In this document: positions 10,955 through 39,023 of the stretch, piece after piece
Numbering within the stretch: position 1 is the stretch's first letter
Layout of the letters: each line of letters begins with the position of its first letter
Source: Armatimonadota bacterium
GTDB taxonomy: Bacteria > Sysuimicrobiota > Sysuimicrobiia > Sysuimicrobiales > Humicultoraceae
Assembly: GCA_052386995.1 (NCBI GenBank)
Contig: JBQTJP010000110.1
Location: forward strand, 30,481 to 94,480
DNA length: 64,000 bases
Reading direction: 5' to 3'
Position numbers and translations under genes: made by a program
The notes under the pieces: generated by a model
The model's input: the letters and a program-made list of their open reading frames with translations, nothing else
What the model was told of the DNA's origin: nothing
Database searches by the model: none

Positions 10955-10957
10955 CTG

Positions 10958-12648: not shown

Positions 12649-13853
12649 GCCGCCCGCCGGTGCGGTTGCGTCGTCAACACAATCGTGGAGTGGATCGAGC
12701 ACATCTGCCCGGACAGCACTTCGGCGCCGTGTCCGGAGACCAGCGCGACTTCGGCGTCGGCCACCTGTCGCGTACCGCCCTCGCCCCGCAACTGAATGAC
12801 CGCCTCGGCAAAGCCGGTCAGGTTGCCCAGGTGGTGGGAGGACAAGAGTCCACCGCCGGTGTTCACGGGGATGTCGCCGCCGGGCGCGGTCCGCATCTCC
12901 GCTGCGAAGGCGCCGCCCTCGCTCTTTCCGCACCAGCCATAGTCTTCCAGCTGAAGAATGACCTCGCCCGTGAAGCAGTCGTACAACTGGGCGAGATCCA
13001 CGTCGGCCGTGGTAATGCCGGCCTGCCGGAATGCGGTCTCGCGCGCGCCGTGCACCGCGAGCGTCGTGTAATTCGTCTTGTCCCACCACAACTCGGCCAT
13101 CTGCTCGCCAAATCCGATGCCGCCCATATACACCGGCGGCCGGCGCAGGTCGCGCGCGCGCTCCTCCGTGGTGACGATGAACGCGGTGCCACCGTCACTC
13201 TGGAGGCAAATGTCGAACAGGCGGTACGGCCAGACGATCACCGGCGATCGCTGGTGATCCTCCAGCGTCAACGGCCGGTCATGCAGGTAGGCGCGTGGAT
13301 TCAGGTTCGCCCACCGCCGCGTGGCGACGGCCACTGCACCGAGCTGCTCGCTGGTGGTGCCGAATTCATGCATGTGGCGGCTGGCCAGGAGGCCGTGATA
13401 GGTGGGCGCGTTCGCGCCGAAGAGCGCGGCCCATGAGTTCTGCTTGGCGGCATAGGACTGGCCGCGCTTTCCCGACCCCTGCTTTGCCGCCTGACTGCGA
13501 CTCCAGTCGTCGCGCGCGCCCGAGCACAGCACGTAGTCGGCGATGCCATGATCGAGCAGCCCGGTCGCCGCGAGCAACGCGTGGCCCGCGTACTCGCCGC
13601 CCCGACCCACGTTCTCCAGGTACAGGTTGACCGGCAGGTTCAGCACCCGGGCGAACGAGTCGTGATGCCGAGGACGCACACCGCCTCCCGCATCGCTCAG
13701 CATCTGAACCGCCGCGCCGATGTCGTGCGCCGCCAGACCCGCATCTTCCATGGCGAGTCGCGCGGCCTCCACTTCGAGCATCAGGACCGACCGGCCGGGC
13801 AGATGCCCGACCTCGGTGACGCCGAGTCCGACAATCGCGTAGCGTCCTCTCAT
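12645..13853 (-). CDS. SCP-x / lipid-transfer-protein-type thiolase-like enzyme (thiolase or retro-aldolase, Ltp2-like)
   Basis: Thiolase fold. DUF35-associated subfamily. Confidence 0.75.
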   Translation of the reverse strand: MRGRYAIVGLGVTEVGHLPGRSVLMLEVEAARLAMEDAGLAAHDIGAAVQMLSDAGGGVRPRHHDSFARVLNLPVNLYLENVGRGGEYAGHALLAATGLLDHGIADYVLCSGARDDWSRSQAAKQGSGKRGQSYAAKQNSWAALFGANAPTYHGLLASRHMHEFGTTSEQLGAVAVATRRWANLNPRAYLHDRPLTLEDHQRSPVIVWPYRLFDICLQSDGGTAFIVTTEERARDLRRPPVYMGGIGFGEQMAELWWDKTNYTTLAVHGARETAFRQAGITTADVDLAQLYDCFTGEVILQLEDYGWCGKSEGGAFAAEMRTAPGGDIPVNTGGGLLSSHHLGNLTGFAEAVIQLRGEGGTRQVADAEVALVSGHGAEVLSGQMCSIHSTIVLTTQPHRRAA

Positions 13854-13874
13854 GATGACCCAGCCGCTGATGAC

Positions 13875-14783
13875 CTAGCCGCGGATGAAGGACTCGGGTG
13901 GCCTGGGGCCCCAGAGGTTGACCGCGCCGACACGTCCCCTGACGGGATCCCAGACCCCGGCCTCACGCATACCCTCGCCGTCGAAACGCACCGACTCTGC
14001 GAGAAGCTCCCACCGGATATTCCACGGATCCACGAAATACACGAACAGGCTGTTGCCGGGCCCGTGCCGCCCGGGGCCGTACTCGACCTGCACGCCAAGG
14101 GTGCCGAAGTGGTCGAGCATCCGGAGCATGTCGCTCCAGGACGCGATCTCGAGCGCGACGTGATGCAGACCCGGGGTCGAGGACCGTACCAGGGCGACGG
14201 TGGTATGCTCGTCTCCACAGCGCAGCCAGTAGAACTCGTCGGGGATGCGATCCGACAGGCGGAGGTCGAGGTGATCCTCCAGCCACCGTGCGGACGCGCC
14301 CACGTGTGGGCTGCGGAGATTGATGTGCGACAACCTCAGCAGATTGGCCGGTGAAGCTTCCGCCGCGGGCCGCGCAACAGGCGCGTCGGGAATCACCAGC
14401 TCCAGATAGAGTCCGTCGTCGTCCTGGAGCCGGACGGCCGGTCCGTGGACGGACTCCATGGCCGCGGGCCCCTCGACCGTCAGGCCGCGGCTACGCAACA
14501 TCGCAGCGGCAACATCCAGGGCGCCTTCATCGCGCACCGCCAGGGCATAGTGCGCCAAACCGAAAGGCTCGCCGGGGTACAGCACGAGTTCGTGGTGCGG
14601 CACCAGTTGCGCGCCGGCCGGTAGCGTGCTCATGAGCACCGCGCCCGTCGACGCGTCCCGACCGGTGATGCCGAGTCCCAGCACGCGGCGATAGTATTCG
14701 GCCGCGGCGTCCGGATCCGACACCCGGAACGTGACGTGATCCAGGTGCGTCACGGGGAGACGCTGGCCGGTGCGACCCGTCAT
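13875..14783 (-). CDS. Two-domain VOC (glyoxalase/extradiol dioxygenase-like) protein
   Basis: Two VOC modules and a C23O-like C-terminal motif (GPGRHGPGNSLFVYFVDPWNIRWEL). The start MTGRTGQ overlaps the CE4 stop (ATGA). Confidence 0.65.
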   Translation of the reverse strand: MTGRTGQRLPVTHLDHVTFRVSDPDAAAEYYRRVLGLGITGRDASTGAVLMSTLPAGAQLVPHHELVLYPGEPFGLAHYALAVRDEGALDVAAAMLRSRGLTVEGPAAMESVHGPAVRLQDDDGLYLELVIPDAPVARPAAEASPANLLRLSHINLRSPHVGASARWLEDHLDLRLSDRIPDEFYWLRCGDEHTTVALVRSSTPGLHHVALEIASWSDMLRMLDHFGTLGVQVEYGPGRHGPGNSLFVYFVDPWNIRWELLAESVRFDGEGMREAGVWDPVRGRVGAVNLWGPRPPESFIRG

Positions 14784-15664
14784 CGAGATCCTGGCTCCAG
14801 CCGGGCGGCGGGAGTCGCGGACGACCCGTCGGCCGTTCGAGTTCCGAGCTGATGCATCCGGGCGCGGAATAGTCGGAACCCATCGGTACGCAGCACGGGA
14901 TAGCGCCACAGCCGGTGAGGGCGGAGGGCGGCATAGGGATTCTTGCCAGGCCCTCCGAGCGCCGCGGTCGCGTAGCGTGGGGCCACCATCGGCTCAACCA
15001 CCGGCGACCAGCGACCCCAGGGGTATGCGAAGTGCCTCGGCGTCACCCCAAGGCGCCGCTGGATCATACGATCGCACTCGTCGAGTTCGGCAGCTGCCTG
15101 ATCCGGCGTCGTCTGCGACAGATCCACGTGGGTGTGCGTGTGGCTGCCGATCGCCACGAGTCCCGACCGCGCCATCTCGCCCGCCTGCTCCCAGGTGAGG
15201 GGCAACGGCCGGCGTTCCGGCGCGAGATTGCCGAAAGCACCGAAGTCGAACGGCCGCCGGGTCTCGACGTACATCGCGGGCAGATAGACGGTCGCGGGCA
15301 GTCCGTACCGACGCAGTACGGGATACGCCACGTCATACGTCTCGCCGTAGCCGTCGTCGAACGTAATGGCCACGATATCCGATGCGGCCTGACGGCCCGG
15401 AGACGCGCAGACCTCGGCCACATCGTCCAGCGAGACAACCCGGCAATGACGATGAAGACAGCGCATCTGCGCTTCGAAGGCGCGCTCCGTGACATCCACG
15501 TCGCTGCGCGTGTTGCCGCCGACGCGGTGGTACAGCAGCACCACGACGCCCGGCTCCGGGTGCGGCCGGACGGCCTGCAGCGGCAGCGCCAGCCACCGCC
15601 CGAGGCTGCGCGCCGTGCGTCCTGCCCCCATGATCCAGTCGGGCAACTCCATAGCGGCCGTCAA
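14780..15664 (-). CDS. Polysaccharide deacetylase (CE4 / NodB homology)
   Basis: TFDDGY and HTHTH motifs. Confidence 0.8.
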   Translation of the reverse strand: MTAAMELPDWIMGAGRTARSLGRWLALPLQAVRPHPEPGVVVLLYHRVGGNTRSDVDVTERAFEAQMRCLHRHCRVVSLDDVAEVCASPGRQAASDIVAITFDDGYGETYDVAYPVLRRYGLPATVYLPAMYVETRRPFDFGAFGNLAPERRPLPLTWEQAGEMARSGLVAIGSHTHTHVDLSQTTPDQAAAELDECDRMIQRRLGVTPRHFAYPWGRWSPVVEPMVAPRYATAALGGPGKNPYAALRPHRLWRYPVLRTDGFRLFRARMHQLGTRTADGSSATPAARLEPGSR

Positions 15665-20983: not shown

Positions 20984-22567
20984 TCAGGGTCCGTCTCGGC
21001 CGATCAGGGCGCCTGCACTGAGCCGCGCGCCTTCGCTCCCATCCATCTCGGCAAGCCCGCCTTCTGCACGCCCTCCGGCCCGCCCAAAGTTTCCGCGAAG
21101 CATATCGATGAATGTGAACACCACCTGGCGCTCGGTCAAGAGGATGACCGCTCCGTAGACAACAATCCCGACGGCGACCTCGAGGATCAGGGTCACGAGC
21201 GCGGCGGTGCCCGCCGCCTTCAGCGCCCAATCCACCAGCACCACGCTCGCGATCATGACGGCGCATCCCACGAGGCTCGATCGCACCGCCTCCCACACGT
21301 CGTGGGCCGTTATCCCCAGCACCGACGCCACAAAGCGATGCTGGACCGGCACCAGAATCGCGGTAGCGGCGAGATATCCGGCGGCCACGCCGACGATGCC
21401 CCACCGCAGCCCGATGGCAAACGCCGGGAGGTACAGCAGCAGCGAAAGAAACGTCCATCGCAGCTGCAGATCAGCGCGACCGGCCGCGAGGAGTCCGCTG
21501 AACCACAAGGTCGTCACCAGCTGAAACGTCCCCGCAAACGCCAGGACGCGTATGACCGGGGCCGATGGCAGCCATTTTGCGCCGAAGACCACCTCGACCG
21601 CCGGCGAGGCAACCAGCGCCAGCCCGACCATGACCGGCAGGGCTATGATCGCGACATGTTGCGTCGCAATGAGAAACCCCCGCCTGAGCCGAGCCGTGTC
21701 ATGCTGGACCTTGGAAAAGGCCGACAACATCACCTGATGGAGCGGCGCGGCAACGTCCTGGAGCGGGATCCGGAACGCCGTATACGCGAGCGCATAGTAC
21801 CCCAGAGCAATTGGGCCAAGGAACCGGCCGATCAGCAGGTTGTCGAGATTTCGGATGAAGTAGCTAAAGAGCCGCGAGAGCGTGAGCGGCGTGCTGAACG
21901 ACCAGAGATCCTTGAACTTCGGCCATGAGAATCGCAGGGTCGGCTTCCACCGCGTGGCGAGATAGTAGGCAACCGGGGCCGTGGCGGAGCCGGCAAGCGC
22001 TTTGCCTACCAGACTCCAGACACCCGTGCCGGCCAGGGCCATCCCGAGCCCGGTCAGGCCGCCGACAACCACCGCGGCCGCGTCGCACAACGCCAGCGCA
22101 CGGTACTCCATGCGGCGCGCAGCGAGCGCGAAGTGCGTCACCCATGTGGCGGAGATCACGATGCGGAAGGAGAGGATGACGAGCACCGTCTCCGCGAGCG
22201 GATCCGCCAGAAACGCGCCGGCCAGAGGGGCAGCGGCGAGCGCGATTGCGAACAGAAACGCCCCGACGACCAGGCTCGTCCAGAAGGCTGTCGAGAGGTA
22301 TTCATCGTCCACATCACGCCGCTGGATGATCGCCGACCCACCGCCGGCTTCAAGGAAGAGCTCGAGGAATCCCACAACCACCCACCCGATGGCGATAAGA
22401 CCATAGTCACGAGGAAGGAGGAGTCGAACCAGAATGACTGTGAACACCTGGTCCAACCCTCGCGCCGCGACACGCTGGCCTCCCAGCCAGAACATGCCTT
22501 GCATCGCGGCCGCGCGAATGCGCGGCACCGGATGGCCGTGGGGCCGCACGGTCTCGACCATCGTCAA
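20984..22567 (-). CDS. wzx: Wzx-type flippase (MOP/PST family), paralog of 1102-2622
   Basis: Multi-TM protein about 45% identical by eye to the first Wzx (e.g. LWSFSTPLTLSRLFSYFIRNLDNLLIGRFLG against LWSFGGPLFLSRLFGYAVRNTDNLLIGRYLG). Confidence 0.8.
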   Translation of the reverse strand: MTMVETVRPHGHPVPRIRAAAMQGMFWLGGQRVAARGLDQVFTVILVRLLLPRDYGLIAIGWVVVGFLELFLEAGGGSAIIQRRDVDDEYLSTAFWTSLVVGAFLFAIALAAAPLAGAFLADPLAETVLVILSFRIVISATWVTHFALAARRMEYRALALCDAAAVVVGGLTGLGMALAGTGVWSLVGKALAGSATAPVAYYLATRWKPTLRFSWPKFKDLWSFSTPLTLSRLFSYFIRNLDNLLIGRFLGPIALGYYALAYTAFRIPLQDVAAPLHQVMLSAFSKVQHDTARLRRGFLIATQHVAIIALPVMVGLALVASPAVEVVFGAKWLPSAPVIRVLAFAGTFQLVTTLWFSGLLAAGRADLQLRWTFLSLLLYLPAFAIGLRWGIVGVAAGYLAATAILVPVQHRFVASVLGITAHDVWEAVRSSLVGCAVMIASVVLVDWALKAAGTAALVTLILEVAVGIVVYGAVILLTERQVVFTFIDMLRGNFGRAGGRAEGGLAEMDGSEGARLSAGALIGRDGP

Positions 22568-22932
22568 GAGTCTCTAACGGCGTAGATAATGGAAGGATCT
22601 AGTCCGGCCGGCCCCGGAAGCACGCTGAAACCCTCGCCGATTTCCATTTCGGGAATCGCGGTGTAGGACCGCCGTTCAAAAATCTCCTTGATGAATCCGA
22701 AGTCCACGCGGGCCCAGTGGAGCTTCTTCCCTCGGAAGGGACGCCGGAAGCTTACCCGTCCCAGACGATCGTAAATGGCCGCGAGCGCCCTCCGTCTCGT
22801 CAACGACACCCACGACAGCAGCAGGAACCGCATGGTGACACGCGGGCCGAACCAGCGCCACGCCGTACCGCTGAGCGCGAGCAGTCTCCTGGCACCGCGC
22901 AAGCGAGACCTCAAAAACGTGCTCGGTGCCAC
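22564..22932 (-). CDS. Hypothetical protein
   Basis: It fills the gap between the flanking genes exactly, with a 4-nt overlap and a 15-nt gap. No recognisable domain. Confidence 0.3.
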   Translation of the reverse strand: MAPSTFLRSRLRGARRLLALSGTAWRWFGPRVTMRFLLLSWVSLTRRRALAAIYDRLGRVSFRRPFRGKKLHWARVDFGFIKEIFERRSYTAIPEMEIGEGFSVLPGPAGLDPSIIYAVRDS

Positions 22933-22947
22933 TGCCTTCCCCTTCCA

Positions 22948-24144
22948 TCAGGCTCTCTCAACCCGCGAGCCATCGAGATGCGCAGAGGCGGCATGGTCCG
23001 ACTCGCCATGCACAAGCGCCTCGTAGAGATGCTGATAGGCTTCAGCCATCTGGCCGATGTCGAATAGCCGTCGCGCTCGCTCTTGACCTGCTTCACCCAA
23101 CTGCTTCCTACGGGCGGCATCTCGAAGGAGTTCTGTGGTCGCCCGGATGAGCGCGCCGGCATCTCCGGGCAGACAGAGACGCCCGGTGCGCCCTTCTTGA
23201 ACCTGATCCACGACGCCACCGACGCTTGTGGCGACAACCGGTAGACCCGCCGCCATGGACTCCAGGATGGTGAGAGGAAAACTCTCGTAGTTTGACGTCG
23301 ACAAGAAAAGATCCGATGCGTGGTAAAGATCCACAAGGTCCGTCCTGAGCCCCAGAAATCTGATCGCGTTCTGCAGACCCTCCTTGCGAACGGCGCTCTC
23401 GAGTGCTGGGCGTTCCGGTCCATCACCGGCTACCAGAAAAACCGCCCTGTCGACCGTCGCGGCCACCTGACGGGCCACCTCGACGAACAGCGCGACATTC
23501 TTGACCGGCACGACCCGAGCCATGTACAGCACCACTAATGCGTCGTCCGAAAGCTGGTTGCGCCTGCGCCATACGTGACGCGGCGTGCGCGGGGACGCAA
23601 AGGACGCCGTGTCGATGCCAGTAAGGATCATCGCAATCGAGTCCGCACCGAGCCCAAACGCTTTGGCGACATTGTCGCGCGTGTCGGTGGAGTGCACGAC
23701 AGGTCGATAGCCCAGCCGGCGGGCCATGAATCTCTGGCTTGCGGTATTGAGCCGCGACAGTTGGCCGCCGTCCGGGCCGGTATGGATATCCAGGAGCCTG
23801 CCCCTGACGGCCCGACCGAGAAGATCAGACGGGATCGCATACCACGCGATCCCGGTATACGCGTGCAACACATCTGGCCGAACCTTCCGCACCACGTGCG
23901 CCAGTTCCCACATCAGCCTGCCCTGCAGCCCGATGCCGGCATCCCGCGGCATGTTCAGGGGATGGAACGTCACGTGATTCCCGATCTCGGCGAGGTCGTC
24001 TTCGGGGAGCAGTGGCCTCGCGGTGCAGGCGTGGAGCTCAAAACGCTCGTTGTTCACCCGTCGCAAGAGATCGCGGATAAACCGTGGCACACCGCCCGCC
24101 TTAGACAGCCTCCAGGTGAAATGGAGCACGCGAATCCGTCTCAT
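22948..24144 (-). CDS. GT4-family glycosyltransferase
   Basis: GT4 motif (STSNYESFPLTILESMAAGLPVV). The start MRRIRVLHF overlaps the upstream stop. Confidence 0.8.
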   Translation of the reverse strand: MRRIRVLHFTWRLSKAGGVPRFIRDLLRRVNNERFELHACTARPLLPEDDLAEIGNHVTFHPLNMPRDAGIGLQGRLMWELAHVVRKVRPDVLHAYTGIAWYAIPSDLLGRAVRGRLLDIHTGPDGGQLSRLNTASQRFMARRLGYRPVVHSTDTRDNVAKAFGLGADSIAMILTGIDTASFASPRTPRHVWRRRNQLSDDALVVLYMARVVPVKNVALFVEVARQVAATVDRAVFLVAGDGPERPALESAVRKEGLQNAIRFLGLRTDLVDLYHASDLFLSTSNYESFPLTILESMAAGLPVVATSVGGVVDQVQEGRTGRLCLPGDAGALIRATTELLRDAARRKQLGEAGQERARRLFDIGQMAEAYQHLYEALVHGESDHAASAHLDGSRVERA

Positions 24145-25346
24145 GTGCGCGCGGGGATTCCTTGGGCGCGGGCGCCGCCATCGACAGCGACGCTTTGGAA
24201 CAGTGCCTCGAGGGCCGCCACGACGGTCACAATATCGTAGCGTGAGCGCACCCATGTGCGCCCGTCCTCGCCAAGCTGCCTGGCGAACTCGCGATCCTCT
24301 GCCAGGCGCAGGAGTTGAGCGGCGAGGCTTGCAGGCGACTGTGGGTCGGCCAGCAACGCCACGGTGCCGTCCCCTGTGACCTCGCGAAGCACGGGTATCC
24401 GACTAGCCACGCATGGTTTGCCCGCCGCCATTGCTTCCAGCAGGGCATTTCCAATGCCCTCATAGAGCGACGGGAACACAAAGATGTCGGCCGCCTGCAG
24501 CAATGCGGGGATGTCTCGCCGCTCGCCAAGCAGCGTCACATGGTCACCCAGGCCTTGCGCCCGGATTGACTGCTCCAGCGTGGAGTGAAACCACCCGTCG
24601 CCAGCGAGAACGAGGCGTGCCCGCGGAAACCTGGTCAGGACCTCCTTCATCGCGGCAATGGCGTAGGGCTGTCCCTTCTGCGGGACGAGCCGGGCCACGT
24701 TCAAGATGACCGGATAGGCGTCTTCCCATCCCAGGGCTGCCCGAACCGCCCGTGGGTCGCCCCCCTCGCGCGCGGCATAGTCATCCAGCGCCAGCCCCCG
24801 CGGAATCACGGCGATGCACTCCGGGCGTAGCCCCAACTGGCGCACCGCCGACGCTTTGACGCTTTGGGTGATTGCCACGAATCGGGTTCCCCACCATCTG
24901 GCAGTCAGCCCGTCCAAAGCCTGCGTGATCCAGACCTTCCAGCCCTTCACGTGAGGGTTGTCCAGGCGCCACTCCGGCTCGTAGGTCGTATTGACTAGGG
25001 TCGTGATGACCGGGATCCCGGTCACTCTCCCGACGCACCGGCTCGCGATACCCGGACGGTAGAGGGCGGCGTGAAGAAGATCCGGCGCGAGGGCTCGGAC
25101 GAGACGCCACAGCCGGACCGCTGCACGACCCAGATCCCTCCTGGACGTAACGCCGAGGATGTGGACAGGGATACCGAGCCCTTCCAGATCCGCGACAAAG
25201 CGGCCGCCCTCCGAGAGCGCACACACCTCGTGACGAAAGCGGCGTGGGTCTGAGCGCGACAGGAACGCGATCATCTGCCGCTCCGTCCCTCCGGTGTCCA
25301 GGTCATCAAGGACATGCAAAATGGTGATCCGACGACTATCAGCCAT
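24141..25346 (-). CDS. GT4-family glycosyltransferase
   Basis: GT4 motif (PSLYEGIGNALLEAMAAGKPCV). Confidence 0.8.
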   Translation of the reverse strand: MADSRRITILHVLDDLDTGGTERQMIAFLSRSDPRRFRHEVCALSEGGRFVADLEGLGIPVHILGVTSRRDLGRAAVRLWRLVRALAPDLLHAALYRPGIASRCVGRVTGIPVITTLVNTTYEPEWRLDNPHVKGWKVWITQALDGLTARWWGTRFVAITQSVKASAVRQLGLRPECIAVIPRGLALDDYAAREGGDPRAVRAALGWEDAYPVILNVARLVPQKGQPYAIAAMKEVLTRFPRARLVLAGDGWFHSTLEQSIRAQGLGDHVTLLGERRDIPALLQAADIFVFPSLYEGIGNALLEAMAAGKPCVASRIPVLREVTGDGTVALLADPQSPASLAAQLLRLAEDREFARQLGEDGRTWVRSRYDIVTVVAALEALFQSVAVDGGARAQGIPART

Positions 25347-25480: not shown

Positions 25481-27964
25481 CTAGAACCTTCTCACTCGAA
25501 GTACACGGCTGGCATTGACAGTCCCATTGCTGCCGATCCCCAGAGCCCAGAAGTACGCCCGGCGCGGCGGGTGGCTGCCCATGCTGAAGCTCATCGAGGC
25601 GAACCCGCGGACCGTTCGCACCCGCTCGAGTCTCTGGTTGGCCTGGTAGAACTCGACCTCGGCTGCGTTGGTCTCCACGGTCAAGGTAATCGTCCCGGTG
25701 GCCACGAGGTCATCGTTCGGCGCCGACCACCGCACGCGCGGCGTCTGTGGGCGGGTCCCCGTGCCATCGTTGTCCCTGCGGCGGGCGTTGTACTCAGAGT
25801 CCACAACGCCCGCCGCTCCATCCTCTCTGTGGAAGAGCGTAAAGTCTCCTGGGCGCGAGAGCCCGCGCTGCTGGCGGAATCGCAGCTGGCTGCCCGGTGG
25901 AGGTGCATCGGCCCCGCCGAACCAGATGCCGCGGCTCGGCGAGAACTGTACGCGCGCGAATTGCACCACCGATCGCTCACCCGGGCCATTACGGTCCTGC
26001 GAGTGCCGCACGTTGAAGGCCGTGACGTTCCGGACGACACCGTCCTCATAGACCGAATCGAAGCTTGACGCCGCAACGTACGACTGGATCTCAACACCAG
26101 TCGCCCCGACGCCCATGCCGTCGGCGAGGAACCCCGTGAATCCCCACAGCGCGGGAACTGACCCGGCATGGCCACTCGTCCAGTGCGCGATCTGCGCATG
26201 TCGGTTGCCCAGCGATCTAAGCCCGTGCAGCCAGTAGGCCGTGATGTAGGCTCCCCACCCGAGGCCGACTTCATTCCTCCACGTCAGGAGGTCGACGATA
26301 CGCTGAGTGGGCGTGAGATTCTGCCATGAGTGAAATCCCATGGCCGTATTGGAATTCGCTTCCGCCCGAAACACGTGGGGCGTTTCTCCGTAGTCCGTCC
26401 CGCCCTCAGGCCAGTGAATTCCCGACGACCGCGCGGAAGGGAATCCGTCCGCGGCGCTGCTTCCGGCCGCGACTGCCCCGACGATCGCGCAGTTGCGGCT
26501 TCCGTCCATCCAGATGCCGGCGTTGCGGGCATTCCGGCTGTTCCCCCATCGCATGACCAGCACGCGATCGAGCCAGCAATCGTCCGCCGCGTGATACTGG
26601 TTGTGGTTCGGCCCGACCGCATTGACGCAGAAGGACTCGAACCGGCACTCCAGCATCACCGGGGTTGTGCTTTCTATATCGTCTTGCCGCGCATTGCGGA
26701 CGGAATGCCGGGAGTGGTCGTAGACCACGAGGTCCTCCACGGTGATGCCGAAGGAGCCGTGGATATGCAGACCGTCCCCGGGCCCGCCGGCCAGGACAAC
26801 GCGGCGGAGGTAACTGCCCCGCGAACCGTCAAGCTGCCTGTGACTGTGCCAGGCGTACCGGCCCATGGGCTCCCGTGTGGGCGCCGGCGAGAAGTTGTAG
26901 ACTGCCAGGTTCTCGACATAGTACCTCGCGCGGTCCATAAACATCACATGCGGCCGGTGATTCGGGTCGCCCGCCTCGAAGATGACATTGCTCGTCAGGT
27001 TGGCCACCTTGGCCGTCAACCGCTCCGTCCAGGAGTCGCCCCACGCGTCCTGCCAGCCGACTGAGAGCGCCTCATGTGTGTACCGCAAGCCCGAATCCAG
27101 CTGGAACCGGCCGTGACCGAGGTCGGCGGTGATCCGGCGCACTTCGTCCTGGTGATCGTTCTCGTTGGCCCGCAGATTCGACGGTCCCACGACCACTCGA
27201 TCGCCCACCCTCCAGCCGGCCGCAAAAGCGGGATCGACGGCAATCTCAGCGCTCCCGGCTCGTGCTGTCTCGGTCAGCGGGGACCAGGTGTCCCGATAGA
27301 CGCCGGCTACCCACACTTGAGCGCTGTCTATGGCCCACAGGCCCACATCGGTCGCGAGGGGCGCCATCACGTTGCCACCAACATACTGGCCCTCGTTCAG
27401 GAACCACCGGATGGAGGCCGGAACCGTGACTCGATCGCTCGCGCGGCCGTAGTCCAGCACCCCCCGGACAACGAGGTTGCCATAGAGCGTGAGCCGCGAG
27501 GCCCTGCCACGGCTCGCGCGGAGCGTACCGTCGACCGTGACTGTCCGGGCTTCCGCGGCTTCCGTGTCGACTTCGATCACTCGCCCCGCCGGAATGACGA
27601 CATCGTTGTCCCGTGTGGGGACGCGGCCGGACGGCCACGTCGCGGGGTCGCTCCAGCGAAGCCCTCCGGATGATGGAGGAGGGGTTGGCGGGATCGGCGT
27701 GCGCGATGGGACGGGCGCGGGCGGTGTTGGTGCGCCCGGGGTCGGGGCGGGTGTTGGCGCAGGCGTCGGCTGCGACGGCGGCGGTGTGGGCTGTCCTGGC
27801 GTGGGCTGACCTGGAGCCGGCGTAGGTGGCGCAGGTGGTGAAGTGGGCTGCGGTGTCGGTCGCGGTTTTCCACCAGGCGGCGGCTGGGCAGAAATCAGAT
27901 TCGGAGAGGGGAGCGCGAGGGTGAGGGCGACGAGGAGTGAGAGGGAGAGAAGACGCAGACGCAC
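25481..27964 (-). CDS. Secreted G8-domain / right-handed beta-helix protein (CEMIP/TMEM2-like). A glycan depolymerase or modifying enzyme is likely.
   Basis: GTG start, a signal peptide, a ~70-aa Pro/Thr-rich linker and a G8-like N-terminal segment (RWSDPATWPSGRVPTRDNDVVIPAGRVIEVD...TVDGTL). A long beta-helix-like region follows. Confidence 0.6.
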   Translation of the reverse strand: MRLRLLSLSLLVALTLALPSPNLISAQPPPGGKPRPTPQPTSPPAPPTPAPGQPTPGQPTPPPSQPTPAPTPAPTPGAPTPPAPVPSRTPIPPTPPPSSGGLRWSDPATWPSGRVPTRDNDVVIPAGRVIEVDTEAAEARTVTVDGTLRASRGRASRLTLYGNLVVRGVLDYGRASDRVTVPASIRWFLNEGQYVGGNVMAPLATDVGLWAIDSAQVWVAGVYRDTWSPLTETARAGSAEIAVDPAFAAGWRVGDRVVVGPSNLRANENDHQDEVRRITADLGHGRFQLDSGLRYTHEALSVGWQDAWGDSWTERLTAKVANLTSNVIFEAGDPNHRPHVMFMDRARYYVENLAVYNFSPAPTREPMGRYAWHSHRQLDGSRGSYLRRVVLAGGPGDGLHIHGSFGITVEDLVVYDHSRHSVRNARQDDIESTTPVMLECRFESFCVNAVGPNHNQYHAADDCWLDRVLVMRWGNSRNARNAGIWMDGSRNCAIVGAVAAGSSAADGFPSARSSGIHWPEGGTDYGETPHVFRAEANSNTAMGFHSWQNLTPTQRIVDLLTWRNEVGLGWGAYITAYWLHGLRSLGNRHAQIAHWTSGHAGSVPALWGFTGFLADGMGVGATGVEIQSYVAASSFDSVYEDGVVRNVTAFNVRHSQDRNGPGERSVVQFARVQFSPSRGIWFGGADAPPPGSQLRFRQQRGLSRPGDFTLFHREDGAAGVVDSEYNARRRDNDGTGTRPQTPRVRWSAPNDDLVATGTITLTVETNAAEVEFYQANQRLERVRTVRGFASMSFSMGSHPPRRAYFWALGIGSNGTVNASRVLRVRRF
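27664..27883 (-). repeat. Low-complexity Pro/Thr-rich linker coding repeat inside the G8 gene
   Basis: Reiterated (PTPAP/PTPGQ)n codons. Several spurious antisense ORFs arise here. Confidence 0.5.
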
Positions 27965-28029
27965 GGATCACCTCCGATTTATCCAGAAGCTCTCCGTCGG
28001 TCGGGGAACGCTGCAGGACCGTCCTTCTC

Positions 28030-28135
28030 TTCGGCAGCCCGGCTGTCTTGGAAGTATCGTCCAAGACCCGTAGCTTTGCGTCCCCGAATCACTTCGGGTT
28101 TGCCCTTGTCGGAGAGTTCCGGTGAATGGGATCTC
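28030..28135 (-). ncRNA. Candidate c-di-GMP-I (GEMM) riboswitch in the 5' leader of the G8/beta-helix gene
   Basis: The minus-strand RNA reads ...GGGCAAACCCGAAGUGAUUCGGGGACGCAAAGCUACGGGUCUUGGACGAUACUUCCAAGAC... It carries the conserved GGCAAAC element, a P2 hairpin capped by a GNRA tetraloop (CCCGAA-GUGA-UUCGGG), the invariant GGACGCAAAGC element and a P3 hairpin (GUCUUGG...CCAAGAC). An SD (GGAGG) and a GTG start follow about 60 nt downstream. Confidence 0.5.
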
Positions 28136-33077: not shown

Positions 33078-34427
33078 CTACAGCCGAACGATCTTCGCTC
33101 GCCCCTCCGCGACCTCGCGGGTCGCGTTGCGCGTATCCATCACGAGCCGCGCGTTGCGCACGACCCAGCGATAGTCGACGCATGAGTGATCGGCCACGAT
33201 CATCACGCAATCCGCGCTTCGGAGCGCGGCCGCCGTCAGCGGCCGGCTCGCAAGCGAGTGCCCATTGACCGACAGCCTCGGCACGTAGGGATCGTGATAG
33301 CTGACTTTCACGCCGTGCTGGATCAGCAGTTGGATGATCTTCAGCGCCGGCGACTCGCGGTAGTCGTCGACATCTTTCTTGAAGGTGACGCCCAGCACGA
33401 GCAGGCGCACCGCGCCGGGACGATGCCGGTGACCGTTGAGAGCGAGGAGCGTCTTGGTGACGACGTGGTACGGCATCTCCTCATTGACCCGGGCCGCGAG
33501 CTCAATGAAGTCCATGTGAAAGTCGTATTCTCGGGCCTTCCAGGCCAGGTAATACGGATCGACCGGAATGCAGTGGCCGCCCACCCCGGGCCCGGGCTGA
33601 AATCGCAGAAATCCATAGGGCTTGGTCGCCGCCGCGTCGATGACCTCCCAGATGTCCAGCCCCATGCGGTCACACAGCATGGCCAGCTGGTTCACCAGGG
33701 CGATGTTGACGTTGCGGAAGACATTCTCGAGCAACTTGGACAGCTCGGCCGTCACCGATGAGGACACCGTCTTGACAGGCGTCCCGAGGGCGCCGAAGAG
33801 ACGCGCCGCGCGCCGTGTGCTCTCCGGGTCGACGCCGCCTACGACCACCGGCGTGTTCCGAATGGTGTAGTCCTGCCTTCCGGGGTCGACACGCTCCGGC
33901 ACGAAAGCCAGAAAGATGTCGCGCCCGACCGACAGACCGTGGGATTCCAGGATCGGCAAGACCAGTTCCTCAGTCGTGCCAGGGTAGGACGTGCTCCGCA
34001 AGATCACCAGCTGGCCGGGCCGGAGGTGCTCGGCAACGCCACGGGTGGCGCTGGCGATGCTCGACGTATCGGGTTGCTTGTTCGGTGTGCAGGGCGTCGG
34101 TACGCAGATGAAAATCACATCGGCGCGCGAGAGTCCCTCATAGGCCGTGTCGACCTTGAGACGACCGGAGGCCTGAACCGCGGCAATATCGGCCGCGGGC
34201 ACGTCGCCGACAGGCGACGAGTTGCTGAGCAAGGTGTCGATCCGCGCCGAATCGACATCGATTCCAAGCACGCGGAACCCTTCCTGGGCAAAAGCCACAG
34301 CCAGAGGCAGGCCCACATATCCGAGGCCGATGACCGCGATGTGAGCCTCTTTGGTCCGCACCAGGTCATTGAACTGCGCCGGCCTGGAGGCCTTCGATGC
34401 GGCATATTCGACAGTGGCTATCGTCAT
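33078..34427 (-). CDS. Nucleotide-sugar dehydrogenase (UDP-GlcNAc/ManNAc 6-dehydrogenase, WbpA/WecC-like)
   Basis: N-terminal GLGYVGLP Rossmann motif, a catalytic Cys region (GGHCIPVDP) and the UDPG_MGDP_dh C-terminal domain. Confidence 0.85.
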   Translation of the reverse strand: MTIATVEYAASKASRPAQFNDLVRTKEAHIAVIGLGYVGLPLAVAFAQEGFRVLGIDVDSARIDTLLSNSSPVGDVPAADIAAVQASGRLKVDTAYEGLSRADVIFICVPTPCTPNKQPDTSSIASATRGVAEHLRPGQLVILRSTSYPGTTEELVLPILESHGLSVGRDIFLAFVPERVDPGRQDYTIRNTPVVVGGVDPESTRRAARLFGALGTPVKTVSSSVTAELSKLLENVFRNVNIALVNQLAMLCDRMGLDIWEVIDAAATKPYGFLRFQPGPGVGGHCIPVDPYYLAWKAREYDFHMDFIELAARVNEEMPYHVVTKTLLALNGHRHRPGAVRLLVLGVTFKKDVDDYRESPALKIIQLLIQHGVKVSYHDPYVPRLSVNGHSLASRPLTAAALRSADCVMIVADHSCVDYRWVVRNARLVMDTRNATREVAEGRAKIVRL

Positions 34428-34492
34428 TGATAAGGCTCCGCCGTCCCGGGTACATTCCCCAGGCGAATGATGGCCAAAATTGGACGAGCGCA

Positions 34493-34510
34493 GGGACGCA
34501 AGCGCGTCCC
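34493..34510 (-). terminator. Short GC hairpin in the 92-nt gap after the NusG-paralog gene; a candidate attenuator or terminator
   Basis: GGGACGC-AAGC-GCGTCCC perfect 7-bp stem. An AUUUUGG run lies about 12 nt downstream on the minus strand. Confidence 0.3.
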
Positions 34511-34519
34511 CTCCCTGCC

Positions 34520-35038
34520 TCAGGCGACGAGTTCTACGTCTGTAACGTCCATCTCCACAGGCGTGAGACAGCCCATCAACTGGAGTAGCACGCGCACCCG
34601 CTCACCGCGGCTCGCCGGCCGCTCCAGAATCCCCTGCAAACCGACAAACGGTCCGTGCACCACGTGCACCGCCGAGCCGACCTTCAGGCGCCATCCGGCC
34701 TCCAGTGGGATGATCTCCGCATCCCCGCAGCGTTCGCGGAGCATCCCGATGGCCTCGGCCGGAACAGGCGTCGGAACATCGTCGGTCGCCACGATCCGCT
34801 TGACGCCTGGCGCCCACTTGACCGCGTGCCAGGATTCCGGCTCCAACCGCATCTGGACAAACAGATATGAAGGAAACAACGGCTCGACAACCTTCACGCG
34901 GCGGGATCGCCGCCGGCGAAGGTCCGAAACCTTTGGCAGAAAGACCGAGAGCCCCGAGCGTGCGCGCAACCAGCCGTGGACACGGTCTTCCTGCCGCGGC
35001 TTGGTTTGCACGGCATACCAGGACAGTTCATCATCCAT
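34520..35038 (-). CDS. NusG-paralog transcription antiterminator (RfaH/UpxY/LoaP-like specialised NusG)
   Basis: NGN domain (WYAVQTKPRQE...) and a KOW motif (GSAVHVVHGPFVGLQGIL); 172 aa. Confidence 0.75.
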   Translation of the reverse strand: MDDELSWYAVQTKPRQEDRVHGWLRARSGLSVFLPKVSDLRRRRSRRVKVVEPLFPSYLFVQMRLEPESWHAVKWAPGVKRIVATDDVPTPVPAEAIGMLRERCGDAEIIPLEAGWRLKVGSAVHVVHGPFVGLQGILERPASRGERVRVLLQLMGCLTPVEMDVTDVELVA

Positions 35039-35071: not shown

Positions 35072-35728
35072 CTACGCGCCGGCCAAGGCCCGGCCCCGCG
35101 CGCGGTTCAGCACAGTCCCCAGGATGCGGGCCTCCACCCGTTCGAGCAACCGACGCATCTCCTGCTGCTCGCGTCGGGACGCGCCTTGGGGCGATACCAC
35201 CAGCAGCACGCCATCGGCCTCTTTGCCGATGTACAACGTGTCCGGATAACTCAACATCGGTGCGGTATCGATCACCACAAGATCGAAGCGCTCGCGCAGG
35301 CCGTTGAAGGCAGTCTCGAGCGCTGGCTGGATGAGCAGCGCCTGCGCCGGCGCCTGGACCCTCCCGGCCGGCACGAACGACAGGTGAGGGATCTTGGTGG
35401 CCACAACGACGCTCTGCAGGTCCGCTTTCCCCGTCAGGAGGTCCGCGAGCCCGGGCATGTGGTTGAGGCCGAAGGCCTTGTGCAGTTCCGGCTCACGCAG
35501 GTTGGCATCGACGATCACCGTCGGCCGGCCCGTGCGGGCCATCATCATCGCAAGATTCAACGCGGTCGTCGAACACCCGTCGCCTGCCTGGGCGGCAGCC
35601 ACTGCTACCGCCCGGGGAGGATTGCCGTTGTGGGCCAGCATCACGCTGGCCAGCAGGAGACCGTAGGCCTCCACGAAGGCCGTCCCTTGATCTATGGAGG
35701 CAATGGTAGTGAACCCGTTCGTTGGCAT
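35072..35728 (-). CDS. BY-kinase-like P-loop ATPase (CapB/Wzc C-terminal domain homologue). It appears degenerate.
   Basis: Walker A' (VIVDANLREP) and Walker B (LVVIDTAP) are present. The Walker A reads GDGCSTT, with Cys in place of the invariant Lys. There is no C-terminal Tyr cluster. Confidence 0.6.
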   Translation of the reverse strand: MPTNGFTTIASIDQGTAFVEAYGLLLASVMLAHNGNPPRAVAVAAAQAGDGCSTTALNLAMMMARTGRPTVIVDANLREPELHKAFGLNHMPGLADLLTGKADLQSVVVATKIPHLSFVPAGRVQAPAQALLIQPALETAFNGLRERFDLVVIDTAPMLSYPDTLYIGKEADGVLLVVSPQGASRREQQEMRRLLERVEARILGTVLNRARGRALAGA

Positions 35729-35761: not shown

Positions 35762-37360
35762 CTATCGGCCGTTCGCGGTACTCTCGGCCGGCGGCTGCGG
35801 CGAGCCCAACCAGTTGGCGACCACCGTGGCGGCATCCTGAATCCGCTCGGAGGCGCCGATGGGCACAGTGACATAGCCCCGGGCGATCGCCGCCCAGGCT
35901 GCGCCACCCATTAAGAGCAGCACAAACATGAAGGTAAACATCGCGGTCGCCGGCGCCGGGCGCGGTGTGCCGTGCGCCGGGATCTGCGCCAGGACCGGGA
36001 CGCCGAGCGCGCGCTCCGCGTCCTGTGCGGTACGGATGCGATCATCCATGGACTCGAGCAGCAGTGCCGCCAGGATGCCCAGGATCAGGCCCGCGAAGCC
36101 GGCGGCGGCTCCAAAGCGCGGGAACGCGGAGGGTTCTGCCCGCCCCGGTGCCACGGCGGCCTCGACCAGCTGCACACTCGCCGGTGAGAACCCGGCTTCA
36201 TTCTCGCGCAGCAAGATCTCCTGATACCGCGTGGACAGTAATGTGTAGTTGGCCTCCATGATCCGGTTCTCGCGGGCCAGCCGGTTGAACTCCACTTCCA
36301 CGGCCGGCACGATCGCGACCTGTCCCTGGCGGCGCCTCAGTGTGGACTGGAGCGCGGACACCCGCGCACTCACGGCTGCCTGCTCAATTTCCTGCGTCAC
36401 GATGTCGGCGACCAACCGGGCGTGAATCGGGTTGGTGGTGGTCACCTCTTCACCAACCATCGTCCGCGCCTCGGCTATGAGGCGATTGCGCACGTCGGCG
36501 ATCTCCCGGTTGAGGGCCTCCATGCGCGGATGCAGCGGTGTGTAGACCTGCGCCATCTGCGCGCGACGGAGCTCGAGTTCGATAATGTGGGTCTGGTACC
36601 GGCGGAAGGTCGGGTTCTCGGTCGTCGCCCGCCGCTCAACGATGCGCGGCTGCTCTCGCCCGAACCGTGCGCGGGCGGCCGTCAGGCGTGCGTCCGTCTC
36701 CATACGCGCCCGGTTGGCCGCGTCAAGCTCGACTTCGGCCGAGCGCATCGCCGAGAGGGCTCCGCCGCTCACGTCGGAGAGCGAGATGACTCGATTCCGC
36801 TCACGATAGGCCTGCAGTGCCCGTTCGGACTGTTCGAGCCGCGCACGGGACTGCGTCATTTGATCCTCAACAAACCGGCGCACCTCGCTGACGCTGTTCC
36901 GGTTCGCCTCTCGGAAGTACGCGATGAACTCCTCTGAGGCCACATTCGCCAGGCTCGCCGAGCGCTCGGCGTTGTTCGTCGTCGCCGTGATCCTCACGAG
37001 CGAGGTCCCGCGCTCCGGCGCGGCCGTGATAGCCCGCTGCACCGTATGCGGACCGGCCATGCCCATCCGCTTCGCTACCCGTGTCGCGATCGGGCGACTA
37101 TCGATCAGGGCCATGATGTCGCCAACGGTATTGTCATACCGGTTGAACACAGGCATCGCCTCGCGCGGCAGCACCGTCGGTGGGTTTACCACGACGGGCG
37201 ACGTCACCATCATCCGGGCGGTCGCCACGTAGCGGGCGGGGCGGCGGCCGATGGCCACGTAGGCAGCCCCGACGGCGATGATCGTGACAAGAATCACCAG
37301 CCAGAGGCGGTTTCGTACCGCCTGCCAGTACTGGCCTAATTCACTCGAATGTCCGCTCAT
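35762..37360 (-). CDS. Polysaccharide co-polymerase / chain-length determinant (PCP, Wzz/GumC-like)
   Basis: N- and C-terminal TM helices flank a long coiled-coil periplasmic region; 532 aa. Confidence 0.75.
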   Translation of the reverse strand: MSGHSSELGQYWQAVRNRLWLVILVTIIAVGAAYVAIGRRPARYVATARMMVTSPVVVNPPTVLPREAMPVFNRYDNTVGDIMALIDSRPIATRVAKRMGMAGPHTVQRAITAAPERGTSLVRITATTNNAERSASLANVASEEFIAYFREANRNSVSEVRRFVEDQMTQSRARLEQSERALQAYRERNRVISLSDVSGGALSAMRSAEVELDAANRARMETDARLTAARARFGREQPRIVERRATTENPTFRRYQTHIIELELRRAQMAQVYTPLHPRMEALNREIADVRNRLIAEARTMVGEEVTTTNPIHARLVADIVTQEIEQAAVSARVSALQSTLRRRQGQVAIVPAVEVEFNRLARENRIMEANYTLLSTRYQEILLRENEAGFSPASVQLVEAAVAPGRAEPSAFPRFGAAAGFAGLILGILAALLLESMDDRIRTAQDAERALGVPVLAQIPAHGTPRPAPATAMFTFMFVLLLMGGAAWAAIARGYVTVPIGASERIQDAATVVANWLGSPQPPAESTANGR

Positions 37361-37403: not shown

Positions 37404-38288
37404 TTAGAAGCCTCCGAGCAGCGCGCGGATCAAGCTCAGTGGACCCAGAAAGCTCAAGATATCGGCCCACCGCACGCTGCGGTCCGGCGGGATGTAGACA
37501 ACGTCCTCGTTCCTCAACGGGACATTTTGCTTCAGATCGCCCCGGACAAAGCTGGTCATGTCCACCGTCGTGACGGCGGTTTTGCCGTCGGGCCCGACAC
37601 GAATGATGCCAATATTATTTATTGCTGACCGTTCGGCCGGTCCGCCGGCCGCCGAGATGACTTCGAAGATCCGCGCGCCCTCCTCGATGTCGTAGGCGCC
37701 CGGTCTGTTGACTGCGCCCATGAGCAGCACGCGATTTTGCAGCGTGGGAACCATGATGACGTCCCCGGACTCGACGGGGAGGTTGTGCTCCCGGTCGCCC
37801 CTCATGAGAAGCGCCTCCAGGTTCACGGCCACGATCTGTCCGGTCGCCCGGCGAGTCAGGGTCGTGCGTCGCATGGCTGCCCTGGCAGTGACACCTCCGG
37901 CGGCTCCCATCACCTCGAGCACGGTCCATCCGCGCTGGATCTCAATGGACCCCGGCCGGGAAACCTGCCCTACGACCTGAACGTATGATCGCCGAAACTC
38001 GCGGACGGAGACCGTGACCTGGGGCTCCCGAAGATAGGTCCGGAGCGCTTTCGTGATCCGCTCGGCCAACTCCGCGGGAGAGGAACCTGCCGCCTGGATG
38101 TCACCGAGCAGCGGCATATTGATCTTGCCGTCGGGACGGACCGTGATGGTCCGGGTGAGGTCGGCCTCACCGAACACCGTGATCTCCACGGAGTCACCGG
38201 CGGCGAGTACATACTGCTCCGGCTGCTGCGCCTGGACGCTCAAGGCGCCCAGGCCGAGCACCTGGGGCAAGAAAAAGAGAAGGGCCAT
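37404..38288 (-). CDS. Polysaccharide export protein (Wza/Poly_export + SLBB domains)
   Basis: Signal peptide (MALLFFLPQVLGLGALSVQAQ), PES motif (GDSVEITV) and SLBB repeats. The start is moved to an internal Met. Confidence 0.75.
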   Translation of the reverse strand: MALLFFLPQVLGLGALSVQAQQPEQYVLAAGDSVEITVFGEADLTRTITVRPDGKINMPLLGDIQAAGSSPAELAERITKALRTYLREPQVTVSVREFRRSYVQVVGQVSRPGSIEIQRGWTVLEVMGAAGGVTARAAMRRTTLTRRATGQIVAVNLEALLMRGDREHNLPVESGDVIMVPTLQNRVLLMGAVNRPGAYDIEEGARIFEVISAAGGPAERSAINNIGIIRVGPDGKTAVTTVDMTSFVRGDLKQNVPLRNEDVVYIPPDRSVRWADILSFLGPLSLIRALLGGF

Positions 38289-39023
38289 GGCAACACGCCA
38301 CGCCAACTTCCGATTCACCAGCCGGTGCGATTCTCTAGACGACCCTGGCACGATCTTCCCTCCCCTCTTGAACCACTGGCCGTTCTTCCGCTGCCCGTCC
38401 GTCAAGGACGAGATATTCCACCACCTCGCTCGTGATCGGATCGGTCCCCATGAAGAGACCGACGATCAGCCAGTCTTGGCCCCTATAGGCCAGGACATCG
38501 CCAATAGAGGGCGGCCGGTTCGGGCGGCCAAGACAATCACAAGCACGAACAGTAATTTGGGAGGTCACCTAATCTCCCCCCTGCGGCACATGCTCCCAAG
38601 ATGACTCTAGCGTAGCCTCCGGCACATGAGGCGACAATTCCCTGCAAGTGGGAATTAAGCACAAATTCGGGATGCTCCCGCGCTCCCCCTCTTGGGGGAT
38701 GCGATTGAAGCGTACGGGGGACTCAGGGGGTATCCAGCGGACAGAGAGCGTGGAGGGGAGCCGAATCCGGCCCAAACCTCGGCAGAATCTACCAGGAAGA
38801 CGCCTCGGAATTCCCGCGGGGCGGAGCGAAACTCGTCGTGGGGAGCCGTCGGCCGGCTCTGAGGGCGCCGAGCCCTGGAGAATTCCAGGTCTGGCGGGAC
38901 TCGACATACTAGGCTCTAGATAGGGGGACGTGGAATAGCCGTCGTAGGGCGCGCGGTTGTGAATATCGCGATCAATCGGCCCGGGCGAATGGTCCCAGAC
39001 GGCCGTACATCGTAGGAGGAGAA

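Follow-up and report, generated by a model that had tools for sequence, protein, structure and literature searches.

A candidate ops-type loading site following a NusG paralog gene in a polysaccharide gene array

A specialised NusG paralog is encoded inside a polysaccharide gene array on a 64,000-nucleotide stretch of DNA from an Armatimonadota bacterium (GenBank assembly GCA_052386995.1, contig JBQTJP010000110.1, positions 30,481 to 94,480). This whole stretch is called the window below, and its positions are counted from its first letter. The paralog gene is followed by a 92-nt gap, which contains a short motif resembling ops, the Escherichia coli element read by the NusG paralog RfaH. The conservation of this motif after related paralog genes suggests that the gap carries an ops-type pause-and-load site, situated after the factor's own gene, with an export module on one side and about 31 kb of biosynthesis genes on the other. 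The probability of this reading is estimated at roughly 0.6.

The paralog and the ops-like motif

The paralog gene comprises 172 codons, from an ATG start to a TGA stop at 34520-34522, and is the sole NusG-like open reading frame (ORF) within the window. Its NGN domain (PF02357, residues 6-99) was recognised by Pfam with 75.3 bits at a cut-off of 22.2, and residues 119-169 match isolated KOW chains of E. coli NusG (E about 2e-4). With an alignment of 112 sequences, AlphaFold2 (AF2) predicted an NGN domain followed by a five-stranded C-terminal beta barrel (strands within residues 123-170), with a confidence score (pLDDT) of 85.7 for the model and about 90-97 for the NGN domain. The beta-barrel KOW is that of the top model, the remaining four being of lower confidence, and with a shallower alignment the C-terminus was partly helical at low confidence; a fold switch of the KOW domain is thus possible.

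Among the four NusG-family models of NCBIfam, RfaH (TIGR01955) gave the highest score, 102.7 bits at a cut-off of 144.5. The scores for UpxY (NF033644, 82.9 bits) and LoaP (NF033641, 79.7 bits) are likewise under their cut-offs of 100 and 125, which rules out membership of any of these three families by curated criteria. The score for housekeeping NusG (TIGR00922) is 78.7 bits, far under the cut-off of 135.7. The neighbours of the gene are those for a tyrosine kinase and an NDP-sugar (nucleoside diphosphate sugar) dehydrogenase, not secE or rplK, and the same holds in 27 related loci. A housekeeping NusG is thus ruled out by score, by gene context and by the occurrence of two such paralogs in one metagenome-assembled genome (MAG). 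A first-pass annotation, made from the letters of the window, had described a specialised NGN+KOW paralog in a polysaccharide cluster and had named housekeeping NusG as what would overturn that description; the domain matches, the low NusG score and the polysaccharide neighbours all uphold the description. As judged by sequence comparison, the 172-residue protein belongs with its relatives to a separate clade of specialised NusG paralogs.

The protein has 141 detectable relatives in the protein collection searched, the named ones coming from MAGs labelled Armatimonadota, and the matching genome contigs include Candidatus Fervidifonticultor and a 'CSP1-3' bacterium, both of the phylum Candidatus Sysuimicrobiota. 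It carries the RfaH-like segment EPLFPSYLFV and retains the equivalents of RfaH K10, R16, E48 and R138; which residue corresponds to R23 varies with gap placement in the alignment.

When the gaps after the related paralog genes are lined up, a single conserved sequence island is seen. It consists of a hairpin and, after 1-6 nt, the invariant 8-mer GGCGGAGC, the remaining gap being fully diverged. The 8-mer is identical in the 27 tabulated copies from the window and the genome loci. Its association with the paralog was counted over non-redundant loci having at least 150 nt of downstream sequence, with the motif on the same strand within 350 nt downstream. It was found after 22 of 23 paralogs at least 50% identical to that of the window and after 28 of 34 that are 40-50% identical. 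Between 30 and 40% identity the 8-mer is present in 12 of 64 loci, and GCGGTAGC, the core of E. coli ops, in 7 others. Under 30% identity, where the loci encode Vibrionaceae RfaH and UpxY-like proteins of Bacteroidota, it is absent (0/17). The distance from the paralog stop codon to GGCGGAGC ranges from 30 to 275 nt and is mostly 50-130 nt.

An independent metagenome sample gave the same association, the motif being present in 39 of 80 loci with 5.45 expected (P about 1e-20). The 7-mer core was found in 7 of 45 distant genome loci (0.95 expected, P about 6e-5), among them loci of Pyrinomonadaceae, Luteolibacter, Nitrospira, Thermodesulfobacteriota and one actinomycete. The downstream gene varies (dehydrogenase, wza or others) and the motif still follows the paralog gene.

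The 9-mer is not over-represented in the window, with 5 copies for 3.5 expected. Just one of them, at 34435-34443, falls within an inter-gene gap of this array; the remaining operon-strand copies in the array were rejected as chance occurrences in coding sequence. The first-pass annotation had proposed the leader of the array as the place to look for an ops-like element. The leader (38406-39023) is devoid of GCGGAGC on its operon strand, and blastn detected no similarity between the leader and the relatives. The regulatory role which that annotation gave to the gap is supported, and a conserved candidate recruitment element lies inside the same 92 nt. This element had been missed, and the earlier interpretation was centred on the wrong one.

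The consensus of the motif over 62 non-redundant loci is AAC-GGCGGAGC-YRTG; aligned without gaps, it agrees with ops (GGCGGTAGCGTG) at positions 1-5 and 11-12. Position 11 is T in 54 of the 62 loci and position 12 is G in 36. Of the consensus-pause flanks (GG at -11/-10, T at -1, G at +1), the window copy has the GG and T11, with A at position 12. The core GCGGAGC is invariant in all 62 and is predicted, by RNAalifold and by DNA folding, to form a 3-bp stem with a GGA loop. The DNA mini-hairpins described as extraordinarily stable fall into two sequence classes (PMC13037366): GCGNAGC, to which this core belongs, and GCGNNAGC, that of the ops core GCGGTAGC. The polymerase pauses at U11 of ops, where the dinucleotide TG induces the pause and the 5' GG forms part of the consensus pause, and RfaH reads a hairpin of the non-template strand in which the C3:G8 pair closes the G4-A7 loop and T6 is flipped out (PMC5995543). 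From the alignment, the element is ops with one loop base removed and one base added on the 3' side. The spacing between the GG and the T is therefore kept.

The E. coli type of sequence was itself encountered among the distant relatives. The exact ops 12-mer GGCGGTAGCGTG follows RfaH-like paralog genes in loci L056 (at about 6718-6729), L135 and L141, and GGCGGTAGCCTG is in the equivalent place in L026 and L027. These copies are situated 51-324 nt past the paralog genes, several with a preceding hairpin. Their hosts are a Verrucomicrobiales MAG (L056), Thermodesulfovibrionales MAGs and metagenome contigs. In the first genome-contig sample, GCGGTAGC was found in 4 of the 45 distant loci (0.35 expected, P about 5e-4).

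The hairpins of the gap and the proposed mechanism

The gap, for which the length of 92 nt given by the first-pass annotation was confirmed, contains two hairpins (Table 1). Hairpin 2, a candidate nascent-RNA pause hairpin, is separated from the motif by 2 nt, which puts its end at about -14 relative to T11. A stem of at least 5 bp ending 0-6 nt ahead of the motif is found in 26 of 27 loci, compared with 67% of random positions, and its sequence differs between loci. The mean folding z-score is -1.3. The covariation score is 0.331, compared with 0.166 for shuffled alignments (0/500 as high) and at most 0.195 for slid controls. The variable arms could not be aligned by MAFFT and the covariance model retains part of the misalignment, so that these covariation figures are both conservative and imperfect. 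The model of the whole element gives a single strong match per related locus, after the paralog gene, and finds the non-seed sites in L022, L023 and L049, all of them also after the paralog gene. L025 is an exception, the match being upstream of the paralog gene.

The gap contains two elements of an ops-type site, a predicted non-template-strand mini-hairpin of the GCG...AGC form and, upstream of it, a hairpin for the nascent RNA. The site is not promoter-proximal, since it comes after five genes and some 4.1 kb into the array. The loading site would consist of the nascent-RNA hairpin 34445-34463, 2 nt, and GGCGGAGC-Y-N-T (34432-34442). RNA polymerase would transcribe the export module (small ORF, wza, wzz, kinase and paralog), pass hairpin 1 and pause at hairpin 2 and GGCGGAGC..T. 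The paralog would then bind the paused polymerase through its NGN domain, displacing NusG, and the polymerase so modified would be less prone to pausing and to premature termination along the roughly 31 kb of biosynthesis genes. In this way the export genes and the factor would be made first, and the long biosynthetic part would depend on the factor. With the site placed after the paralog gene, the arrangement would be feed-forward and not autoregulatory.

A further step can be suggested tentatively, with a small chance of being correct: the paralog gene and the downstream hairpin-GGCGGAGC site might form a self-loading cassette acting in cis. The polymerase would pause 80-120 nt past the stop codon while the ribosome behind it completes the protein, and the freshly made factor would load onto that same polymerase, so that only polymerases coming through the paralog gene would turn processive. 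If true, this would explain why the site follows the gene whether the gene heads the operon or sits in its middle, and how one genome can accommodate two paralogs that share a core motif.

Hairpin 1 begins 9 nt past the paralog stop codon and has seven perfect pairs (7-8 bp in all), six of them G-C, closed by a 4-nt loop. The first-pass annotation had noticed this hairpin and had assigned it a short U-run. The perfect 7-bp GC hairpin at 34493-34510 is indeed there, but the TTTT run is 13 nt away, not adjacent to it. The 13 nt directly past the stem are TGCGCTCGTCCAA and include no adjacent U-tract, and the hairpin was not reported in a terminator scan of the window. With its sole T-run 13 nt past the stem, hairpin 1 is not a canonical intrinsic terminator. 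The gap as a whole folds modestly more strongly than shuffled sequences (z = -1.86), and it is by comparison among relatives alone that hairpin 1 is seen to be beyond chance. Where the paralog is the last gene of the export module, most loci have a strong stem-loop (about 7-14 bp) that begins within about 12 nt of the stop codon. The sequence of this stem-loop is different in every relative while the structure is kept, and no U-tract or T-run was found after the equivalent hairpins. In loci where the paralog gene comes first, the hairpin at this place is weak or mostly absent and the ops-like motif is kept. The mean folding energy in the metagenome sample is -14 kcal/mol for paralog-first loci, compared with -20 kcal/mol for loci with the gene order of the window. 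Since the paralog-first relatives retain the motif without the hairpin, hairpin 1 appears to track the end of the upstream module and not the action of the paralog. Its most probable role is that of an attenuator or of a 3'-end stabiliser for that module.

The earlier interpretation took hairpin 1 (34492-34511) for a terminator or a strong pause site overridden by the paralog, a step that would gate all downstream genes. The hairpin is GC-rich, its position is kept in loci of the same gene order, and terminators poor in U-tracts have been proposed in high-GC bacteria. Moreover, a paralog loaded in cis during synthesis of its own mRNA could be in place before the polymerase arrives at hairpin 1; cis loading has been discussed for monomorphic homologs of RfaH (PMC13015549). 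However, no U-tract lies within 0-2 nt of the stem, and the presence of the hairpin follows the gene order. The only conserved ops-like site is downstream of hairpin 1, none being found upstream in the operon or the leader, and because hairpin 1 lies upstream of that site, a paralog loaded at 34431-34442 cannot override it. Override would be possible only if the paralog were loaded in cis independently of any site. This explanation is considered unlikely, and to this extent the first-pass annotation is not borne out.

Hairpin 1 also resembles a 3'-end structure, and the gap might accordingly be seen as an operon boundary, at which hairpin 1 ends the transcript of the export genes and the regulator while a promoter in or around the gap starts the biosynthesis operon, with the site in its 5' leader. 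Such a position would be in keeping with the known ops, opsX and LoaP sites, all of which are within 5' leaders, and with the relatives at 40-50% identity, in which the paralog comes first and the motif is found between it and wza. In the window, however, there are only about 29 nt between hairpins 1 and 2, and this spacer is not conserved. No sigma-70-like promoter was found by a scan of the operon strand of the gap, which is weak evidence given that the promoter types of this phylum may differ. A boundary of this kind is considered unlikely.

A number of observations weigh against an ops-type pause-and-load site. The window copy of the motif is degenerate, having T at position 10 and A at position 12 where the consensus has R and G. 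The residues of RfaH that form the pocket for T6, namely H20, Q24 and R73, are not retained in the paralog; throughout its family H20 is replaced by W and R73 by P. Across the distant loci, no clean pattern of covariation was seen between the T6-pocket residues and the type of motif. No Rfam model recognises the ops-like site: with Rfam 15, at gathering as well as permissive thresholds, there was nothing at the gap, no JUMPstart and no EAR, and the exact ops copies in related loci went without a match as well. Statistical support for hairpin 2 is moderate. Pausing and binding at the site, and the antitermination that would follow, are predictions from sequence, and recognition at the RNA level, as for LoaP, is possible in place of recognition of the DNA hairpin.

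Lastly, the GGAG of the motif is 9 nt before the ATG of the dehydrogenase gene, a spacing like that of the Shine-Dalgarno (SD) sequences of wzz, the kinase gene and others. The motif and hairpin might therefore be the translation-initiation region of the next gene, possibly with the SD sequence gated by the hairpin. An ATG or GTG is present at motif positions 10-12 in 32 loci and opens a long ORF in 14 of them, and the motif shares the frame of the downstream ORF more often than either other frame. Nevertheless, the 8-mer is invariant across phyla, unlike SD sequences, which vary even within the window (AGGAGG, GGGAG, GGAGG). Just 2 nt separate the GGAG from the start-like codon in half of the loci, too short a distance for an SD sequence, and in 18 of the 32 this codon opens an ORF of only 3-87 codons, which rules out the codon at positions 10-12 as a universal start of the next gene. 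The dehydrogenase of L015 and L016 has its start 20-45 nt further downstream and in a different frame. Whichever gene comes next, the motif goes with the paralog gene, and related loci carry the true ops sequence in the equivalent place. A role solely in translation initiation is considered unlikely.

The start codons of related loci differ in their placement. The dehydrogenase ATG is at motif positions 10-12 (GGCGGAGCYATG) in relatives that include L003, L010, L011 and L013. The window (34425-34442, minus strand), L001, L007, L008 and L012 have TTA, GTA, GTC or CTA at these positions. In these five the ATG is two codons further in the same frame, which places GGAG at normal SD spacing. Secondary use of GGAG as an SD sequence in the sub-clade of the window is plausible.

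The gene array and its other features

The coordinates of the array and of the elements in the gap are given in Table 1.

Table 1. Features of the paralog gene, the gap that follows it and the flanking genes
Feature	Position	Strand	Basis or remark
Conserved small ORF, about 60-76 aa, no known domain	about 38386-38565	minus	head of array; tblastn
Wza-type polysaccharide export protein	37404-38405	minus	Pfam Poly_export and SLBB; TIGR03027 185.7 bits, cut-off 180
Wzz-like chain-length determinant	35762-37360	minus	TIGR03007 155 bits, under cut-off; position kept in relatives
Polysaccharide tyrosine autokinase, gene before paralog	35072-35728	minus	TIGR01007 118 bits, cut-off 108
Specialised NusG paralog (NGN + KOW)	34520-35038	minus	ORF, translation, Pfam, NCBIfam, AF2
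Gap between paralog and dehydrogenase	34428-34519		92 nt
Hairpin 1, GGGACGC-GCTT-GCGTCCC	34493-34510; 34492-34511 with one G-U pair	minus	sequence, fold
TTTT run	34476-34479	minus	begins 13 nt past hairpin 1; not conserved in relatives
Whole candidate element (hairpin 2, linker and motif)	34429-34467	minus	covariance model, 35.6 bits, E about 1e-5
Hairpin 2, CCTGGG-GAATGTA-CCCGGG, candidate nascent-RNA pause hairpin	34445-34463	minus	folds; ends 2 nt before motif
ops-like element GGCGGAGCCTTA	34431-34442	minus	sequence comparison
Invariant 8-mer GGCGGAGC	34435-34442	minus	78 nt past paralog stop codon
Predicted mini-hairpin core GCGGAGC	34435-34441	minus	
Motif as oligonucleotide, d(ACGGCGGAGCCTT) as DNA, r(ACGGCGGAGCCUU) as RNA			
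Conserved T, motif position 11	34432	minus	
NDP-sugar dehydrogenase, first gene past the element	33078-34427	minus	Pfam; TIGR03026 416 bits

The adjacency of the kinase and paralog genes recurs in 19 assembly or genome loci (L001-L018 and L024) and 8 metagenome loci (L070-L077), whose paralogs are 53-90% identical to that of the window. These loci have wza and wzz ahead wherever the contig reaches far enough, and a gap of about 92-190 nt past the paralog, usually followed by the dehydrogenase gene. In relatives at 40-47% identity the paralog gene comes first and wza next.

The array is headed by a small ORF that is 58-80% identical to ORFs in the same position in L006-L010, L012 and L013 (tblastn). 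A small ORF directly before wza is found at the equivalent place in L003, L005-L010, L012 and L013, with the motif SQITVRA..C....IG(D/E)(V/I)LAYRGQ(D/E)W(L/M)(I/V)VGLFMG(T/A)DP; no Pfam match is recorded for it in the relatives. Because this ORF overlaps the listed TTG start of wza, that start is probably too far upstream. The paralog had been counted as the fourth gene of the array; since the small ORF precedes wza, it is the fifth.

Past the element, the same-strand genes encode the dehydrogenase, a 501-residue membrane protein, methyl- and acetyltransferases, deacetylases, glycosyltransferases, a flippase, DegT and a CapD-like enzyme. This biosynthesis run is about 31 kb long and ends at about 3.2 kb of the window. 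The first-pass annotation had placed some 33 kb of downstream genes under the control of the paralog. A long same-strand run is indeed present, but it is not one uninterrupted unit, as it includes a riboswitch (28029-28113) and a 380-nt gap (22568-22947).

The riboswitch, a c-di-GMP-I-GGC (RF03167, 73 bits, minus strand), is inside the same-strand polysaccharide array and precedes the gene of an 827-residue G8/beta-helix protein (25481-27964). Copies are present in L007 (8079-8157), L008 (8080-8160) and L014 (6761-6843), that of L014 being only about 130 nt past the ops-like motif. The pairing of the riboswitch with a G8 protein (orthologs 31% identical) recurs downstream of the paralog in L008 and L014, the two loci covered by the G8 comparison. 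In the window, the fold downstream of the riboswitch pairs a GGAGG ribosome-binding site and has no U-tract terminator, which hints at translational control, compatible with a terminator-resistant polymerase.

The 380-nt non-coding gap is between a glycosyltransferase gene (22948-24255) and that of a Wzx-like flippase (20984-22567), and could hold an internal promoter or other regulatory element. The minus-strand block 9246-14909, among glycosyltransferase and deacetylase genes of the same array, encodes two family-III coenzyme A transferases together with thiolase-like, hot-dog dehydratase-like and glyoxalase-fold proteins. It may serve acyl modification of the polysaccharide or be unrelated cargo.

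Two paralogs are found in different polysaccharide loci (L011 and L022) of MAG JAVKIJ01 (Ca. Fervidifonticultor quintus). One gene follows the kinase gene and the other is the first of its array. Each is followed by its own copy of GGCGGAGC(Y)ATG, with a different preceding hairpin. The pair raises the question of how, or whether, specificity between the two is kept.

Comparison with known systems

Specialised NusG paralogs beside or inside polysaccharide clusters are well known (PMC7819879, PMC7593976). According to reviews, target finding by operon-embedded paralogs was unexplained outside E. coli RfaH (PMC7593976); it has since been worked out for UpxY, LoaP and PrfaH. A full-text search of open-access papers found none that describes GGCGGAGC in connection with NusG, RfaH, antitermination or JUMPstart. 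Within what that literature and Rfam cover, three features appear to be undescribed: the ops variant GGCGGAGCYRTG, its position immediately past the paralog gene in several phyla, and its mid-array location in this lineage. Comparison alone provides a precise candidate loading site, GGCGGAGCYRTG with the preceding hairpin, for a large paralog family of uncultured lineages. The candidate site was seen in Ca. Sysuimicrobiota (formerly CSP1-3), MAGs labelled 'Armatimonadota', Acidobacteriota, Verrucomicrobiota, Nitrospirota, Thermodesulfobacteriota and Actinomycetes. It would be a natural specificity variant for studying how NGN domains read non-template-strand hairpins, and it would provide a simple sequence rule by which long polysaccharide clusters relying on such factors can be predicted. 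Should the site work otherwise, the finding shrinks to an ordinary NusG paralog in a polysaccharide locus.

A processive-antitermination signal, EAR, was reportedly found by Irnov and Winkler in 2010 inside the eps exopolysaccharide operon of Bacillus subtilis. Like the site in the window, it lies between the chain-length and kinase genes on one side and the biosynthesis genes on the other. It differs in being a large structured RNA that is not known to work with a dedicated NusG paralog, and Rfam gave no EAR-like match in the window.

The closest parallel is that with E. coli RfaH and ops. RfaH is also a NusG paralog made up of NGN and KOW domains, and it is the top-scoring curated model for the paralog. 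The two sites share GGCGG at positions 1-5, T-R at 11-12 and a GCG...AGC core able to form a mini-hairpin in the non-template strand. Both factors are associated with a long polysaccharide cluster as the target, and relatives of the paralog are followed by the exact ops 12-mer (L056, L135, L141). On the other hand, the loop in the window is shorter by one base and has no T6, the base that RfaH takes up in its pocket, and the paralog lacks the pocket residues and scores 102.7 bits against the required 144.5. RfaH has an autoinhibited alpha-hairpin KOW, whereas the best AF2 model favours a beta KOW for the paralog. RfaH acts in trans at a promoter-proximal leader, whereas the paralog gene is inside its presumed target cluster and the site is in the middle of the array, after the gene.

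LoaP of Bacillus is similar in that its gene adjoins the target cluster and that its action requires a small hairpin in the neighbouring non-coding region (PMC12691694). It differs in recognising an RNA hairpin, in countering NusA at intrinsic terminators in a 5' leader (dfn) and in having no ops-like DNA motif; the paralog scores 79.7 bits against the LoaP cut-off of 125.

The UpxY proteins of Bacteroides are, like the paralog, embedded in the operons of polysaccharide loci. Their class-1 opsX sites were shown by experiment to consist of a nascent-RNA pause hairpin (-9 to -14) and a hairpin of the non-template DNA that has GCG..AGC stems (Saba et al. 2024, PMC11685472). The site in the window, as known from its sequence, has the same order of a candidate pause hairpin and then a predicted GCG..AGC hairpin, at what may be a consensus-like pause. 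The paralog differs from UpxY in phylum and in score (82.9 bits against a cut-off of 100). UpxY is encoded by the first gene, with a leader site upstream and an inhibitor partner, UpxZ; no upxZ was seen adjoining the paralog, the next gene being the dehydrogenase. The sites of both UpxY and PrfaH are upstream of their genes. In the window the candidate site is downstream, so that the order is gene then site, in contrast to the site-then-gene order of UpxY and PrfaH.

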